DNA of 19,562 bases from a bacterium (GTDB taxonomy: Bacteria > Hydrothermota > Tepidihabitantia > Tepidihabitantales > Tepidihabitantaceae). A program made the position numbers and the translations under genes. The notes beneath the pieces are model-generated. The model saw only the letters and a list, made by a program, of their open reading frames with translations. It did not search any database and had not been told where the DNA came from. How positions within the stretch are numbered: position 1 is the first letter of the stretch; every line of letters begins with the position of its first letter. The stretch lies in assembly GCA_046485285.1 (NCBI GenBank), contig JAWOHE010000096.1:1-19562 (forward strand), read 5' to 3'. Positions 7,371-12,253 of the stretch are shown piece by piece.

Positions 7371-7398
7371 TTGACAGTCCCGGGCGCGCGGGTAAGAT
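7371..7398 (+). promoter_or_regulatory. sigma70-like promoter of mlaEFD, probably giving a leaderless mRNA
   Basis: TTGACA-N16-TAAGAT. The -10 overlaps ATG 7397 and lies 7 nt before in-frame GTG 7406. Confidence 0.7.
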
Positions 7399-7405
7399 GG
7401 CGGCA

Positions 7406-8143
7406 GTGAAGTTGCTCTCCGTGCCGCTGCGCTTCCTGGGGTTCCTGGCGCGGAGCGTCGTCATCCCCTGGGACCTGCGCCGGACCTTGCCGCGCCTCAG
7501 CGAGCAGTTATTCCGGCAGGGGGTTTCGGCGCTGCCGATCGTGCTGGTCTCCGGGGTGTTTGTCGGCCTGACGACAGCGGTCCAGACCTCCTACCAGCTG
7601 ATGGGCGTCGTGCCGAAGTACTTTGTCGGGATGGGCGTCGGCCGGCTGGTGCTCATCGAGTTGGCGCCGGTCTTCACTGCTTTCGTCGTCGCCGGCCGTT
7701 CGGCGTCGTCGATTGCGGCCGAGATCGGCTCGATGCAGGTCTCCGAACAGGTGGATGCGCTGACGGTGATGGGCGTGAATCCCTACCGCTACCTATGCCT
7801 GCCGCGGATCGTGGCACTCGCGGCCGCGTTGCCGCTCCTCGTTGTGGTAATGGAGGTGGTTGCGGTACTGGTTGCGCTGGCGATATCGGTCAGCGCGCTC
7901 GACGTCTCTGCCCACACCTTCAGTTATGGCCTGACCCGATTCTTCGAGGCCCGCGACTTCTTCGGCGGGATGGGCAAGGCCGCGCTGTTCGGGCTGGTCA
8001 TCGGGACAAGCGGTTGTTTCGCCGGCCTCGAGGTCCGGGGTGGCGCAGAGGACGTCGGCCGCGCGACGACCCGGGCGGTCGTGACCGCGTCTGCGTTGAT
8101 CCTGGGCTTGAACCTCGTCGCGGCCTTCCTGTTTTTCAGCTGA
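7406..8143 (+). CDS. mlaE: MlaE-family ABC permease (MCE system), 245 aa
   Basis: IELAPVFTAFVVAGRSASSIAAEIGSMQVSEQVDAL...PRI, GGAEDVGRATTRAVV. Start moved from 7397 to GTG 7406 on promoter geometry. Confidence 0.92.
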   Translation: MKLLSVPLRFLGFLARSVVIPWDLRRTLPRLSEQLFRQGVSALPIVLVSGVFVGLTTAVQTSYQLMGVVPKYFVGMGVGRLVLIELAPVFTAFVVAGRSASSIAAEIGSMQVSEQVDALTVMGVNPYRYLCLPRIVALAAALPLLVVVMEVVAVLVALAISVSALDVSAHTFSYGLTRFFEARDFFGGMGKAALFGLVIGTSGCFAGLEVRGGAEDVGRATTRAVVTASALILGLNLVAAFLFFS

Positions 8144-8841
8144 TGATACGGGTCACCGGGGTCTGGAAGCGGTTTGATGACCGACCCGTGCTGAGGGGGG
8201 TGGACCTTGAGGTGCCGGACGGAGAGGCCGTTGTCATCCTTGGCGCGTCGGGCATCGGCAAGTCGGTACTGCTCAGGGTGATAGCCGGGCTTCTACCGGC
8301 CGACTCAGGAACGGTCAGCTATGACGGCTGTCCGCTGAGCTTCGGTCTGCTCGCCGCCGGTCATCCGGCGTTCGGACAAATCGGCTACGTCTTCCAGGGC
8401 GGGGCGCTGTTCGACTCGTTGACGGTCTACGATAATGTCGCGCTGCCGCTCAGGGAGACGCGTCGGCTGACCGCGCCGGAGGTGCGGGCGCGGGTGCGTT
8501 CGGCGCTCGCGCGGACCGGGATGGTCGACTGCGAAAGGCTGATGCCGGCCGAGCTCTCGGGCGGCATGACCCGGCTGGTCGCGATTGCCCGGGCGCTCGC
8601 GGCCGACCCGAAGTACGTCTTCTACGACGAGCCGACGACCGGGCTCGACCCGGTGATGCGCGGTCGGGTTCTCGAACTCATCGTCGGACTCCGCCGCGTC
8701 GAGGGGATGACGAGCGTCATCGTCACTCACGACCTTGCCGCGGCCGAGCAGCTGGCGGACAGGATTCAGATGTTGCGCGAAGGCAGGCTCGTGTCGCTCG
8801 AGGGCGCGAGAAGGGAGCATTATGAACCGCAGGGTGCGTGA
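8143..8841 (+). CDS. mlaF: MlaF/Mkl-type ABC ATPase, 232 aa
   Basis: Start ATG 8143 (TGATG overlap with mlaE). Walker A GASGIGKS, VFQGGALFDSLTV, LSGGM, Walker B FYDEPTTGLDP, VTHD. Confidence 0.92.
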   Translation: MIRVTGVWKRFDDRPVLRGVDLEVPDGEAVVILGASGIGKSVLLRVIAGLLPADSGTVSYDGCPLSFGLLAAGHPAFGQIGYVFQGGALFDSLTVYDNVALPLRETRRLTAPEVRARVRSALARTGMVDCERLMPAELSGGMTRLVAIARALAADPKYVFYDEPTTGLDPVMRGRVLELIVGLRRVEGMTSVIVTHDLAAAEQLADRIQMLREGRLVSLEGARREHYEPQGA

Positions 8842-9580
8842 CTGGCTGGTCGTGGCCTTCGTGGTCCTGGGTATCGGGCTGGTCGTGCTGGCCTATGCCT
8901 GGTTCTCAGGGCGTATCGACGGCGGCAGGTACCGCCGGGTGGCAATCCTGTTCCCGGACGTGACCGGGCTCCGGGTCGGCGACCCGGTCGAGGTGCTCGG
9001 CCTGCCAAGCGGGCGGGTCGCCCGACTGGCACTCGATGAGGGCCAGGTCCGGTGCGAGGCGCTGGTCGACCGGCGGGTGGCGCTCACGGTCGATACGCGG
9101 TTCGCAATCCGGTCGGTGAGCTATCTGGGGAGCGACCGCTACCTGATGGTTACGCTCGGGTCCGGACCGACGGCTGGCGGCGAGCACTCATTCGAGGGGG
9201 TCAATGAGGCGCTGGATCTCGAGGAGACGTTCCTGCGGTTGGACCGGATGATGGCCCGCCTTGACCCGGAGGAACTGGTTGTCGAACTGCGCCAGGCCGG
9301 CCGGGAGATACTGGGCGCGGTGAGCGCCGAGCTGGACCGGCTCAATACCGGGCTGGCCGGGCTCAACTCCGGGTTCGTCGGCACGGCGGTCGAGCTCAGG
9401 GCGATGGCCGGCCGGCTCGACAGCATCGGCCGGCTCTTCGAGGACTCGTCCACCGCCGGTCGGCTGCTGTCCTCGGACGAGTTGTACCAGGAACTGCGCG
9501 CCACCAACCTGGAGCTTCGGGTCCTGCTTGCGGACGTGAGGCAGAACCCGGGGCGCTACCTCCGGCTGAGCCTGTTCTAG
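8822..9580 (+). CDS. mlaD: MlaD/MCE-domain protein with helical C-terminal region, 252 aa
   Basis: Start MNRRVRDW at 8822, N-terminal TM helix, FPDVTGLRVGDPVEVLGLPSGRV MCE motif, C-terminal DVRQNPGRYL. Confidence 0.9.
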   Translation: MNRRVRDWLVVAFVVLGIGLVVLAYAWFSGRIDGGRYRRVAILFPDVTGLRVGDPVEVLGLPSGRVARLALDEGQVRCEALVDRRVALTVDTRFAIRSVSYLGSDRYLMVTLGSGPTAGGEHSFEGVNEALDLEETFLRLDRMMARLDPEELVVELRQAGREILGAVSAELDRLNTGLAGLNSGFVGTAVELRAMAGRLDSIGRLFEDSSTAGRLLSSDELYQELRATNLELRVLLADVRQNPGRYLRLSLF

Positions 9581-10245
9581 TCCGCGCCTGCCGGGACAGG
9601 CACAAGGCTGAGTTCACGAGCGGAGACCTCCGCCGCAAGGTTGAGCCCTCAACAGCCGCCGGTGCCGGACCCGAAGGCCTCGTAGCTGATCCGGACCGCT
9701 CGGACGTCGTCGGGCTTGATACCGGGGAGGCCGGACCGTAGCGCTTCGGCGACGTCGAGCTCGAGGTCGAGCCAGGCGCCGGGTTCTTCGACCCGGATCA
9801 CCTGCTTGGTGGCAGAACTCACGACTGCGATGGCGGGCGAGCGAAGTTGCCAGCGGGTTTCACCGAGTTCGCGGCCATCGTCGCTGAGCCAGCCGAGTAC
9901 GACCGCGGCGCTCGCGTGGTAGTCAGGGCGGCTGCTCTGGGCCGCGAACCTGGCACGGGTATGGAATGTCACCCGCTGGTCCGGAAGCGCGACGACCTGG
10001 ACCAGCCGGGCCCAGCCGCACATCGACTTCCGCACGGATACCCCGCCGTCTGGCAGTGACAGGAGCTCGGCCCGGCCGTCGTAGTTGCGGGTATCGCGTT
10101 GCCAACCGGAATCAAGAGGGGCGGCAAAGTTGCTGTTGATTAGGTGCTGTCGCACAGGCGGGGCGGCACTCGCTGGACCCGGTCCGCAGGACGCTGCCAG
10201 CATGAAGATCAGGCTCGCAGCCGAAATCGGTCTCTGGATTCTCAC
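9577..10245 (-). CDS. Putative exported (lipo)selenoprotein of unknown family, 222 aa, with GGC-U-G motif (UGA at 9651-9649)
   Basis: GTG start 10245 gives signal VRIQRPISAASLIFMLAAS-C (lipobox-like). The in-frame TGA after Cys is followed by a SECIS-like hairpin and 23 more codons (GLNLAAEVSARELSLVPVPAGAD) to TAG 9579-9577. The CDS itself is well supported; Sec read-through is inferred. Confidence 0.72.
9604..9651 (-). promoter_or_regulatory. Bacterial SECIS-like element
   Basis: mRNA UGA-GGGCUCAACCUU-GCG-GCGGA-GGUC-UCCGC-U-CGU-GAACUC-AGCCUU. The apical GGUC loop begins 20 nt after UGA with the same AGGUCU tip as the E. coli fdhF SECIS; lower stem AGGGCU/AGCCUU. Confidence 0.7.
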
Positions 10246-10282
10246 GTGGCCGATTCGATACCCCTCGGCCCGATGAGGTTCC

Positions 10283-11038
10283 TCAGGTCGCGTCCCGAAA
10301 ACGGACAAGGCGCTCGAAGCTGTCTATCTCGAGGGACGCGCCGCCGACGAGCACGCCGTCGACGTCCGGAGCTGCCATCAGTGTGTCGGCATTGTCGGGT
10401 TTCACGCTTCCGCCGTAGAGTATGCGGACCCGTACCGCGAGCTCGGAGGTGAACCGTTCGGCAAGCCACCCGCGGATGAGAGCGTGTACCTCGCCAGCCT
10501 GCTCCGGCGTGGCGGTGCGCCCGGTGCCGATGGCCCAGACCGGCTCGTAGGCGACGACGAAGTCCTCGTCTGCATTCACCGCGGCCAGCCCGGCGGTCAG
10601 CTGGCGTTCGACAATGGCCCGGGTTATCCCGGCATCGCGTTCGTTGAGCGTCTCGCCGGCACACAGCACCGGCACAAGCCCGGCGTCGAGCGCGGCCCGG
10701 ACCTTGCGCCCGCAGTCATCATCCCGCTCGCCGAATACGTGGCGGCGTTCGGAGTGCCCGACGAGCACGTGGCTGCAGCCAAGGTCGACGAGAAACGAAG
10801 CCGCGATCTCACCGGTGAACGCTCCCTTAGGTGCCCAGTGCAGGTTCTGGCCCCCGCAGCCGATGGCGGTACGGCCCAGCTCCTCGATGACCGCGGGCAG
10901 GGCGGTGAAAGGCGGGAAGACGAGGATATCGCGGCCGCGGACGTCGGCGAGCCGGACCCGGAGCTGGATCGCGAACTTGCGGGCTTCGCCGGGCGCGAGG
11001 TGCATCTTCCAGTTGCCGGCGATCAGCGGGGTGCGCAT
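10283..11038 (-). CDS. tpiA: Triosephosphate isomerase
   Basis: IAGNWKM, GAFTGE, VGHSERR, AYEPVWAIGTG, ILYGGSVK, DGVLVGGASL. Confidence 0.98.
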   Translation of the reverse strand: MRTPLIAGNWKMHLAPGEARKFAIQLRVRLADVRGRDILVFPPFTALPAVIEELGRTAIGCGGQNLHWAPKGAFTGEIAASFLVDLGCSHVLVGHSERRHVFGERDDDCGRKVRAALDAGLVPVLCAGETLNERDAGITRAIVERQLTAGLAAVNADEDFVVAYEPVWAIGTGRTATPEQAGEVHALIRGWLAERFTSELAVRVRILYGGSVKPDNADTLMAAPDVDGVLVGGASLEIDSFERLVRFRDAT

Positions 11039-11041
11039 GAG

Positions 11042-12253
11042 TCAGTCGGCTCTGGCCAGAGCCTCGATGCCTGGCAGTTTGCGGCCCTCCAGGAACTCGA
11101 GGCAGGCGCCACCACCGGTCGAGGCGTGGCTGACCTTGCCGAGGAGGTCCCACTTCGCGAGGCAGGCGAGAGTGTCGCCGCCCCCGACGACCGTGGTCGC
11201 TCCTGCCTCGGTTGCGCTGGCGATTGCCCGGGCGACAGCCTCGCTGCCGCGGGCGTAGGCGTCCCGCTCGAAGACGCCCATCGGGCCGGCCCATACGACA
11301 GTCCGTGCCCGGGTGATGGCGTCGGCGTAGATCCGGGCGGTGGCCGGGCCGATGTCAACTCCGATACTCGTCTCCGGGATGGCGCCGGCCGGGACGACTC
11401 GCGCCGCCGCGGTGTCATCGAGGCTGTGGGTGACCACGACGTCGGCGGGCAGGACCAGCTTCGGGTCGGCGGCCAGCCGGCCGGCGGTCTCGACTAAATC
11501 GGTCTCTCGGAGGCTCCGGCCGATACCTCGGCCCTGGGCCAGCAGGAAGCTGAACATCAATCCACCGCCGACGAGCAGGTGATCGACGCTGGCGAGCAGG
11601 TTGCCGATAACCGCAGCCTTGTCTGACACCTTGGCCCCGCCGATGACCGCGACAAACGGACGTTCGGGGTCTCCGATGACGCGGCTCAGGTAGTCGATTT
11701 CTTTCTCCATCAGGAGCCCGGCCGCGGGCCGCTCGAAACGCCCGGGCACGCCGACGGTCGAGGCGTGGGTGCGGTGTGCCGTACCGAAGGCGTCGTTGAC
11801 GTACCGGTCGGCGAGGGCCGCGAGCGCATCGGCAAAGGCAGGCTCGTTGGCTTCCTCGCCGACGTGGAAGCGCAGGTTCTCGAGCAGGATTGCCGACCCC
11901 GGCGGCGCGGCAGCGACGAACATCTCGGTTTCCGGCCCGATGCAGTTGGATGCGAAGAGCACCTTGCGGCCCAGTAGCTTTGCCAGCCGGTCAGCAACCG
12001 GGCGGAGGCTGAGCTTCGGGTTCGGCTTGCCCTTTGGTTTGCCGAGATGTGAGGCGATGACCGCGGTCGCGCCCCGGTCGAGCAGGAGGTTGAGCGTCGG
12101 CAGGGAGGCACGGATGCGGGCGTCGCTGGCGATGCTGCCGTCCCTGGCGAACGGGACATTGAAGTCAACCCGGACAAAAACCCGCTTGCCCTGGACGTCG
12201 AGACGCCGGACCGACAACTTGCCGGAGGAGCTGCCCGGACGCTCTGCGCTCAC
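11042..12253 (-). CDS. pgk: Phosphoglycerate kinase
   Basis: RVDFNVP, SHLGKP, LLENLRF, VNDAFGTAHR, GGAKVSDK, GPMGVFE, GGGDT, STGGGACLEFLEG. GTG start overlaps the gap TGA. Confidence 0.98.
   Translation of the reverse strand: MSAERPGSSSGKLSVRRLDVQGKRVFVRVDFNVPFARDGSIASDARIRASLPTLNLLLDRGATAVIASHLGKPKGKPNPKLSLRPVADRLAKLLGRKVLFASNCIGPETEMFVAAAPPGSAILLENLRFHVGEEANEPAFADALAALADRYVNDAFGTAHRTHASTVGVPGRFERPAAGLLMEKEIDYLSRVIGDPERPFVAVIGGAKVSDKAAVIGNLLASVDHLLVGGGLMFSFLLAQGRGIGRSLRETDLVETAGRLAADPKLVLPADVVVTHSLDDTAAARVVPAGAIPETSIGVDIGPATARIYADAITRARTVVWAGPMGVFERDAYARGSEAVARAIASATEAGATTVVGGGDTLACLAKWDLLGKVSHASTGGGACLEFLEGRKLPGIEALARAD

Follow-up and report, generated by a model that had tools for sequence, protein, structure and literature searches.

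The window analysed here is a stretch of 19,562 nucleotides of bacterial DNA from contig JAWOHE010000096.1 (GenBank assembly GCA_046485285.1, Hydrothermota), which has a GC content of about 69% and belongs to a 2.34-Mb assembly with a completeness of 88%. The gene in question lies on the reverse strand, where the open reading frame (ORF) at 9649..10308 under genetic code table 11 ends with ...FGSGTGGC, followed by TGA at 9651-9649, as the original prediction had described. When this TGA is read through, 23 further residues, GLNLAAEVSARELSLVPVPAGAD, are added before the frame reaches TAG at 9579-9577. The complete gene thus occupies 9577..10245 of the reverse strand, with a GTG start at 10245-10243 and 222 codons including the in-frame TGA at codon 199. 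Its TAG and the TAG of a convergent mlaD-like ORF at 8735..9580 on the forward strand overlap in the palindrome CTAG at 9577-9580, an interlocked arrangement that had been predicted and was confirmed.

The N-terminus read from the GTG at 10245 is MRIQRPISAASLIFMLAAS-C20, a putative signal peptide (10186..10245, reverse strand) whose end, LAAS-Cys20, resembles a lipobox. One more Cys is found upstream of the loop that contains the TGA, as had also been noticed: Cys76 in the K-x-x-C-G motif (KSMC76GW, codon at 10018..10020, reverse strand), a candidate third member of a Cys/selenocysteine centre. The loop itself, encoded at 9649..9654 of the reverse strand, consists of Cys198 (TGT, 9654-9652) and residue 199 (TGA, 9651-9649), followed by Gly200. 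After these three residues the read-through product continues as LNLAAEVSARELSLVPVPAGAD up to the TAG. The extension of 23 codons (9580..9648, reverse strand), within which the peptide ELSLVPVPAGAD is found, would code for the last β-strand of the protein and contain a selenocysteine insertion sequence (SECIS). On the comparative evidence described below, the gene very probably codes for an exported selenoprotein of 222 residues and not for a protein of 198 residues, with UGA199 decoded as selenocysteine (Sec).

Conservation of the TGA codon, the hairpin and the decoding machinery

The read-through protein was searched in six frames against 61 related whole genomes, 46 of which are of high quality. 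Matches were obtained in 53 of the 61 genomes and in 41 of the 46 high-quality ones. By hand count, 132 of the 143 match rows contain exactly one TGA, 10 contain none, and one contains TAG. All 10 TGA-free rows stop before query residue 199. When nine of them were re-read, six had TGA just past the match (a paralogue on contig C44 of the same genome, L131, L135, L140, L141 and L142), L143 had Cys, L144 had neither Cys nor Sec, and L146 was spurious; the tenth row is an N-terminal fragment at a contig end. In a wider sample, the TGA of the Sec loop is present in 63 of the 67 loci that were read through.

The 20 best loci (L018-L037) were translated with TGA as Sec (U), and the resulting alignment comprises the window protein and 18 orthologues (19 sequences), whose identity to the window protein is 29-54%. 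The 222-residue product aligns with these orthologues from end to end, and the TGA falls in the same column in all 20 aligned DNA rows. C198, U199, G200, A205 and V207 are invariant in the 19 sequences, and L201, E206 and A209 are conserved in at least 90% of them, so that the pattern after the TGA is G-L-x3-A-E-V-S-A-[R/D]-x-[V/I]-x-L. The orthologues reach a real stop 16-27 codons past Sec, which is TAG or TAA, and TGA in three cases. These invariant and nearly invariant residues place the segment after the apparent stop among the best-conserved parts of the protein. Two signs had been named that would speak for an ordinary stop, namely homologues ending at this position with TAA or TAG and a loss of conservation after the UGA. 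Neither was seen: the 18 orthologues and the sampled paralogues keep TGA, and G200, A205 and V207 do not vary.

The RNA directly 3' of the UGA is GGGCUCAACCUUGCGGCGGA-GGUC-UCCGCUCGU, which includes GCGGCGGA-GGUC-UCCGCUCGU, and its GGUC loop starts 20 nt past the UGA. The apical hairpin of the putative SECIS, at 9619..9634 of the reverse strand, is a 6-bp stem, GGCGGA/UCCGCU, with the GGUC tetraloop at 9628-9625, as determined by RNAalifold and covariation. In all 20 DNA rows, a stem of the form GC-N-GA/UC-N'-GC is closed over GGUC, and RNAalifold applied to these aligned rows gave exactly the six-pair apical helix and no other. In this helix 96.7% of the cells are paired, compared with 22-60% in controls with the 3' side shifted by 1-3 columns, and none of 500 shuffles reached the observed pairing. 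The helix also covaries, for which the original prediction had suggested looking: four of the six pairs show compensatory double changes, and the pair 27-36 occurs as GC (13 rows), AU (3), CG (3) and UA (1), which are all four Watson-Crick types. Within the A-E-V-S-A codons, the two bases of this pair take the third place of Ala (GCN) and of Ser (UCN), which indicates that synonymous sites covary to keep the stem.

In the minimum-free-energy fold of the window's own sequence, the stem extends to about 9616-9637, and a lower AGGGCU/AGCCUU stem appears. Across the homologues the lower stem is paired in 59% of the cells, and it was rejected as a conserved feature of the SECIS. Of the hairpin described in the original prediction, the apical stem with GGUC 20 nt past the UGA therefore stands, and the lower stem is a feature of the window's own fold.

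The hairpin is found widely in the family. A GGUC tetraloop on a stem of at least 4 bp was seen in 57 of 63 family genes; it starts 17, 20 or 23 nt past the UGA, and this distance shifts in codon steps with the length of the peptide loop. Five of the other six genes have a hairpin with AGUU (L105, L113, L120 and L134) or GGUU (L133) at the same place, in which the central G-U is kept, and one differs. The range of loops suggests that the real requirement may be N-G-U-Y. The stem length across the orthologues is 5-7 bp, and all five paralogues encoded in the same genome have the GGUC hairpin.

The same genome contains selA (537.7 bits), selB (357.5 bits), selD and a gene for tRNA-Sec (73 bits), which ARAGORN reports as tRNA-SeC with the anticodon tca, i.e., tRNA-Sec(UCA). 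All four components whose presence was to be checked were thus found, and selA was found in 57 of the 61 related genomes. The selD gene has one in-frame TGA of its own (motif ...SCAG-U-ASKLGK). It is located at G000:C37:9674-12542 (loci L002 and L007), directly 3' of selB on the same strand, so that the two genes look like a pair. When the SECIS of selD was inspected as a control from the same genome, the GGUC hairpin was not obviously shared, and the comparison therefore gives no extra support. TGA is otherwise the commonest closing stop in this genome, ending 1548 of the 2590 stop-to-stop frames of at least 300 codons (60%), which indicates that a general reassignment of TGA is not the explanation.

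These components point to ordinary bacterial decoding, in which SelA, SelB, SelD and tRNA-Sec(UCA) would read UGA199 as selenocysteine and SelB with its Sec-tRNA would be recruited by the intragenic hairpin. Decoding would be directed by a minimal fdhF-like SECIS, consisting of a stem of 5-7 bp and the GGUC tetraloop 20 nt past the UGA. This element would be written into the A-E-V-S-A codons of the last β-strand, where the third bases of the Ala and Ser codons would pair and covary. The arrangement resembles the SelB-dependent decoding of the Escherichia coli fdhF type in that the hairpin is intragenic and immediately 3' of the UGA, with its apical loop 17-23 nt downstream, in that the tetraloop GGUC contains G-U and is closed by A-U, and in that selA, selB, selD and tRNA-Sec are present in the genome. 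The tip of the E. coli fdhF SECIS is AGGUCU. In contrast to the fdhF type, the family conserves only the apical stem of 5-7 bp, with neither a lower helix nor a bulged U, and its hairpin is tied to β-strand codons and moves in 3-nt steps.

Predicted fold and export

AlphaFold2 was run on the 19-sequence alignment. The full model is a β-sandwich with a mean predicted local distance difference test score (pLDDT) of 92.0 and a predicted template modelling score (pTM) of 0.86. Post-Sec residues 203-216 form a long strand in the model (block pLDDT of 96 and 93), and the Cys-Sec loop at residues 193-202 is somewhat less confident. Foldseek returned 158 matches at E ≤ 0.001, with E-values from 7e-7 and with sugar-binding domains on top; the best are the sugar-binding domain of Fbs1, carbohydrate-binding modules (CBMs) of the CBM11, CBM61 and CBM16 types, and the lectin domains of phage tailspikes. 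The Z values obtained with VIA for lectin and CBM domains range from 13.5 to 10.4, with 13.5 for 5w6h_A (root-mean-square deviation of 2.3 over 137 aligned residues), 12.4 for 8xmz_A, 12.1 for 4d0q and 11.1 for 2zey_A. Because these alignments span model residues 33 to 217-222, the post-Sec strand is part of the shared fold. The predictions of AlphaFold2, Foldseek and VIA thus agree with the earlier proposal of a jelly-roll or galactose-binding-like sandwich to which the extension would contribute the last strand.

According to the model, the protein would fold after the signal peptide as a CBM/galactose-binding-like β-sandwich, in which the last two strands would be joined by a loop holding Cys198-Sec199-Gly200, and the final strand would consist of post-Sec residues. 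In its predicted fold the protein is similar to CBM16, CBM11, CBM61, the hyaluronan- and porphyran-binding modules, Fbs1 and the tailspike lectins. The N-terminal pattern 'L-x-N-G-x-F-E ... G-W' and the end 'A-D-D-[IV]-S-L' also resemble modules of the CBM4/9 type. The protein differs from CBMs in that no CBM model of Pfam or NCBIfam matches it even at E ≤ 1, its identity to solved structures is only 7-20%, and none of the CBM-type chains among the Foldseek and VIA matches listed is described as a selenoprotein. A sequence search of the PDB gave a best E-value of 0.047, to an unrelated protein.

As read from the alignment, a hydrophobic N-terminus is present in all orthologues, and a Cys stands at the end of the signal peptide in some of them only. 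A clear lipobox is found in several of these (L-T-A-C, V-L-A-C and L-F-S-C); in the orthologues without this Cys, an Ala-rich end of the signal-peptidase-I type takes its place. The lipobox consensus is [LVI][ASTVI][GAS]-C, and the window protein, with L-A-A-S-C20, has Ala and not Leu at position −3. The AlphaFold2 model shows a helix at residues 8-18, followed by a linker of low confidence. Judged from these N-termini, export is a feature of the family, and the term lipoprotein is not applicable family-wide; the window protein, with its lipobox-like end, may be a lipoprotein as proposed originally, and this does not extend to the orthologues that lack the Cys.

The family, its variants and its genomic context

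A hidden Markov model search of the six-frame translation of the assembly detected six family members, all with TGA. The five paralogues of the window gene code for 301-656 residues, and each has a signal peptide and the Sec module at the N-terminus. Four of the five match the type A sorting domain of the type IX secretion system (T9SS), TIGR04183, two of them above the curated cut-off, together with Pfam hits of the FlgD_ig kind; the fifth, on contig C58, matches only Pfam FlgD_ig, below the cut-off. The long paralogues have about 110 to 556 further codons without a stop past Sec, and most of them end in the T9SS sorting domain. The window protein ends 23 residues past Sec and has no T9SS type A sorting domain (TIGR04183/Por_Secre_tail). 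From these architectures, the window gene is the predicted stand-alone short form of a large family, in which the Sec module is elsewhere the N-terminal domain of multidomain proteins.

Two of the paralogues are arranged in tandem on the same strand at G000:C44:21593-24410 (L098); they code for 609 and 301 residues and have one Sec codon and one T9SS tail each. Between the Sec module and the T9SS tail, the paralogues and the database proteins P0073 and P0145 share a conserved central stretch of about 350 residues. As seen in the long paralogues, for example L097:1264-3231 and L099:445-2367 (both on the reverse strand), this stretch includes ...FEWLDI..G..L...DDQTV...LP..F.F.FYG......SVCSNGW..., and no model of Pfam or NCBIfam matches it at E ≤ 0.01.

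The distribution of the family was examined with a DNA pattern composed of the Cys-Sec codons and the hairpin, which was searched in public contigs. It gave 62 matches in 58 contigs, 61 of which are in family genes; 17 of these genes are short forms like that of the window, and 44 are long (up to 556 codons past Sec) or cut by the end of the locus. The record titles assign the contigs to candidate division WOR-3 (16), Eisenbacteria/Eiseniibacteriota (7), Krumholzibacteriota (1) and Cloacimonadota (1), and the others are labelled 'Deltaproteobacteria' (1), plain 'bacterium' (2) or 'uncultured bacterium' (30). The match in the 'Deltaproteobacteria' contig (L062) lies outside the family and was rejected as a chance hit. 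The copy number is six genes in this genome and reaches nine matches in one relative.

A profile search of 1.84 billion representative proteins gave 324 proteins at E ≤ 0.001, and in the 19 best of these the C-terminus coincides with the Cys before Sec or lies only a few residues from it. This indicates that gene callers cut the family at Sec, as had been anticipated; a word-index protein search gave only four matches, all of which are truncated gene calls. Among the profile hits that run past the Sec position, 15 were fetched together with the long protein P0026. P0047 has Cys at the Sec position (HS-C-GDGWAEV versus NGT-U-GGGWAEV), as do P0104 (= L143), P0046 and P0068, so that the Cys forms sought at the UGA position exist among the homologues; no such form was found within the short Cys-Sec subfamily itself. 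P0135 and P0147 have a small Cys-x4-Cys loop at the place of Sec, and P0070, P0095, P0142 and P0145 from the database, as well as L144, have neither Cys nor Sec at the position. In P0026 (2727 residues), three tandem Sec-free modules, each ending with ...GETQATATGDFDDISL, precede repeats of the Kelch-like and fibronectin-like kinds; the module is thus not confined to selenoproteins and also occurs as a plain repeat.

The other residues of the putative centre also vary. Cys76 is conserved in 17 of 18 aligned sequences; in L037 it is replaced, and an extra Cys is present four residues past Sec instead (C-U-x3-C). In P0024, Cys76, Cys198 and Sec199 are changed together to Arg, Trp and Glu, and the rest of the sequence is kept, including A-E-V-F-A. 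P0024 is an apparent orthologue of the short form and is known as a protein only, so that a TGA translated as Trp by another code would be possible there. The arrangements of the Cys partner in the paralogues are U-G-G-C (UxxC), C-T-G-U (CxxU) and G-C-U-x-G-H-C, and a further partner is the distal 'STCWP' Cys, which is aligned with the invariant Tyr109 of the window's subfamily. An internal ester or selenoester with the invariant Gln83 was considered and dropped, since homologues that lack Cys and Sec conserve this Gln just as well.

No Pfam or NCBIfam family matches the window protein (no Pfam model at E ≤ 1 and no NCBIfam model). A review of 2026 lists 119 families of prokaryotic selenoproteins with Pfam or NCBIfam identifiers, most catalogued members being thioredoxin-fold or metal-cofactor enzymes, and no CBM-like or T9SS-cargo family is among those 119 (PMC13188914, Table 1). 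In the full-text literature searched, neither a CBM-like or T9SS-secreted selenoprotein family nor selenoproteins of WOR-3 or Eisenbacteria are described, to which the supplementary tables of deep-Sep (PMC12013277) and BSepDB (PMC13326102) could add. The protein thus appears, as originally proposed, unlike recognised selenoprotein families. Taken with the conservation of the TGA and of the hairpin, the predicted features argue for a genuine new selenoprotein family, which would be decoded in the ordinary way and would be unusual in its fold, location and copy number.

The same-strand neighbours upstream of the window gene are tpiA (10283-11038), whose own stop is TGA, and pgk (11042-12253). 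On the forward strand, positions 7397-9580 hold an ABC transporter operon of mlaE-, mlaF- and mlaD-like genes, named from reading their translations. Of the mla ORFs, only the MlaD-like one was compared across the loci: convergent mlaD adjoins the gene in 8 of the 19 other loci and lies about 1 kb off in a ninth, all of them from closer relatives, and tpiA is located upstream in two of the 19, again in closer relatives only. Because the adjacency of mlaD and tpiA is confined to closer relatives, an operon with, or functional tie to, the neighbours was rejected, and we read the neighbourhood as inherited synteny with no functional link.

Possible role of the selenocysteine and alternative readings

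In the window protein, the Cys partner of Sec199 would be Cys198 plus Cys76; in the paralogues, it would be the Cys of a UxxC, CxxU or CUxxxC arrangement or the distal 'STCWP' Cys. From residue patterns only, we infer that Cys76 or Tyr109 may be close to Sec199. Since thiol/selenol redox enzymes show this same combination of a constant nucleophile and a resolving Cys that varies, an exposed redox-active selenenylsulfide is favoured. Our confidence is a little short of even that Sec and the nearby Cys would form an extracytoplasmic redox-active selenenylsulfide or soft-ligand centre, acting on whatever the lectin-like scaffold binds. A more specific and more tentative possibility is a cell-surface 'seleno-CBM', N-terminal in many type IX-secreted proteins, in which the selenol and a movable resolving Cys would covalently trap or reduce a chalcogen or metal substrate outside the cell, such as polysulfide, elemental sulfur, or selenium or arsenic species. 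With one to nine copies per genome, it might then be what chiefly maintains the Sec machinery in WOR-3, Eisenbacteria and their relatives.

The motif of the window protein is similar to those of the vicinal Cys-Sec proteins, namely animal thioredoxin reductase (GCUG-COOH) and SaoC, SaoL, HgcA, MbdU, KCU-star and Csac_0668 (PMC13188914), in that a Gly-rich turn is followed by Cys-Sec and then by Gly. Unlike that of thioredoxin reductase, the motif is not C-terminal, since 23 residues follow it, and the protein has no flavoprotein domain and is predicted to be exported. The window protein also matches none of the NCBIfam or Pfam models of the bacterial 'CU' families (PMC13188914), and most paralogues in its family differ from the vicinal proteins in having no vicinal Cys.

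It is doubtful, although worth weighing, that Sec and the neighbouring Cys and His of the last loop serve in the same selenoprotein as a soft-metal or metalloid site, e.g., for Cu(I), Ni, Hg or As species. Some paralogue subfamilies group Cys, Sec, His and Cys (G-C-U-x-G-H-C) or Sec with His (G-U-G-G-G-H), and the joint loss of Cys76, Cys198 and Sec199 in P0024 is as expected of one ligand set. Most vicinal 'CU' families are related to metals or organometals, namely SaoL, HgcA, SaoC, MbdU and a 2Fe-2S protein (PMC13188914). However, the window's own subfamily has no conserved His, and the partner residues vary by subfamily, which is unusual for one metal geometry. There is also no conserved metal-related neighbour gene and no match to a metal-binding model in Pfam or NCBIfam.

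A purely structural role is unlikely, in which Sec would form a selenenylsulfide staple that ties the last loop or strand to the sandwich and survives in reducing sulfidic surroundings where disulfides would be reduced. Se-S bonds have lower redox potentials than S-S bonds, at least one potential partner Cys is present in nearly every Sec form (at the vicinal, +3, −3 or +4 position, or as the 'STCWP' Cys), the non-Sec homologues P0135 and P0147 exemplify a Cys-x4-Cys loop that often takes the same place, and the proteins of the family are exported. The partner in a structural bond should keep its position, yet here it moves between subfamilies. The ring formed by vicinal Cys and Sec is strained and typical of catalytic centres such as that of thioredoxin reductase, which also speaks against a staple. 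Moreover, homologues with neither Cys nor Sec exist (P0070, P0095, P0145 and L144), which indicates that the fold does not need the Se-S bond.

The assignment of selenocysteine itself has to be weighed against an ordinary stop, where the protein would end at Cys198 and the hairpin would have arisen by chance in GC-rich sequence or act as a terminator for this gene and the convergent mlaD alike. Several observations speak for the stop or weigh against the assignment of selenocysteine. The gene callers end the gene at the TGA, and 23 stop-free codons are not rare in DNA of 69% GC. The single-sequence fold is unexceptional (z = +0.41, with 128 of 200 shuffles folding at least as well), so that the window alone, at about 69% GC, cannot decide; no Rfam family matches the hairpin, the sole hit being mir-1225 at E = 7, and the incomplete pairing of the lower stem among homologues given above belongs here too. 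The truncated form of 198 residues was modelled almost as confidently as the full form (pLDDT of 91.5 versus 92.0, with a pTM of 0.83), and the sole change is that the strand at residues 92-104 shrinks to 93-99. The check put forward earlier, in which the full model is set against one that lacks the last 24 residues, thus does not discriminate, and structure prediction by itself does not require the extension. For A-E-V-S-A, conservation of the peptide is hard to separate from that of the hairpin, since the two share their bases. Two related genomes carry family genes with TGA, five in G025 (92% complete) and three in G058 (76% complete), and selA was not found in them, which is probably due to gaps in the assemblies. 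Finally, the whole case for selenium in the protein is comparative.

Nevertheless, an ordinary stop is very improbable. Few parts of the protein are conserved as well as the residues after the TGA, and the hairpin covaries at synonymous sites. The frames of the paralogues continue for about 110 to 556 codons, mostly to a T9SS sorting domain. A true stop would drift among TAA, TAG and TGA, whereas TGA is kept in 132 of 143 matches, and no U run follows the hairpin. It is scarcely credible that the TGA stands for a standard amino acid (Trp or Gly, codes 4 and 25) or is passed by near-cognate read-through, even though P0024 has Trp-Glu where the others have Cys-Sec. Against this, TGA closes 60% of the long frames in this genome and is the stop of tpiA just upstream, and a single TGA occurs in each family gene, invariably in the same column and followed by a dedicated hairpin. 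The genome also has all components of the Sec machinery, and homologues have Cys, the usual replacement of Sec, at the position.

An exported selenoprotein, in which Sec and a nearby Cys may form a redox-active centre, is the favoured reading of the window gene. Such a protein would be unlike most catalogued prokaryotic selenoproteins in having a predicted lectin/CBM-like fold, in being exported, mostly via type IX secretion, and in occurring in multiple copies. The CU, UxxC, CxxU, CUxxxC, Cys-only and Cys-free variants would form a natural series on one scaffold, in which the contribution of Sec outside the cytoplasm can be compared. The SECIS is small and easily recognised as GC-N-GA-GGUC-UC-N'-GC in the A-E-V-S-A codons, and a single DNA pattern, for which 61 of 62 matches were true, gives a practical handle for re-annotation and metaproteomic confirmation. 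The family extends across a number of uncultivated FCB-group lineages, namely WOR-3, Eisenbacteria, Krumholzibacteriota and Cloacimonadota. Because public gene calls cut its members at the Sec codon, the surface proteomes and selenoproteomes of these phyla would be systematically under-annotated.

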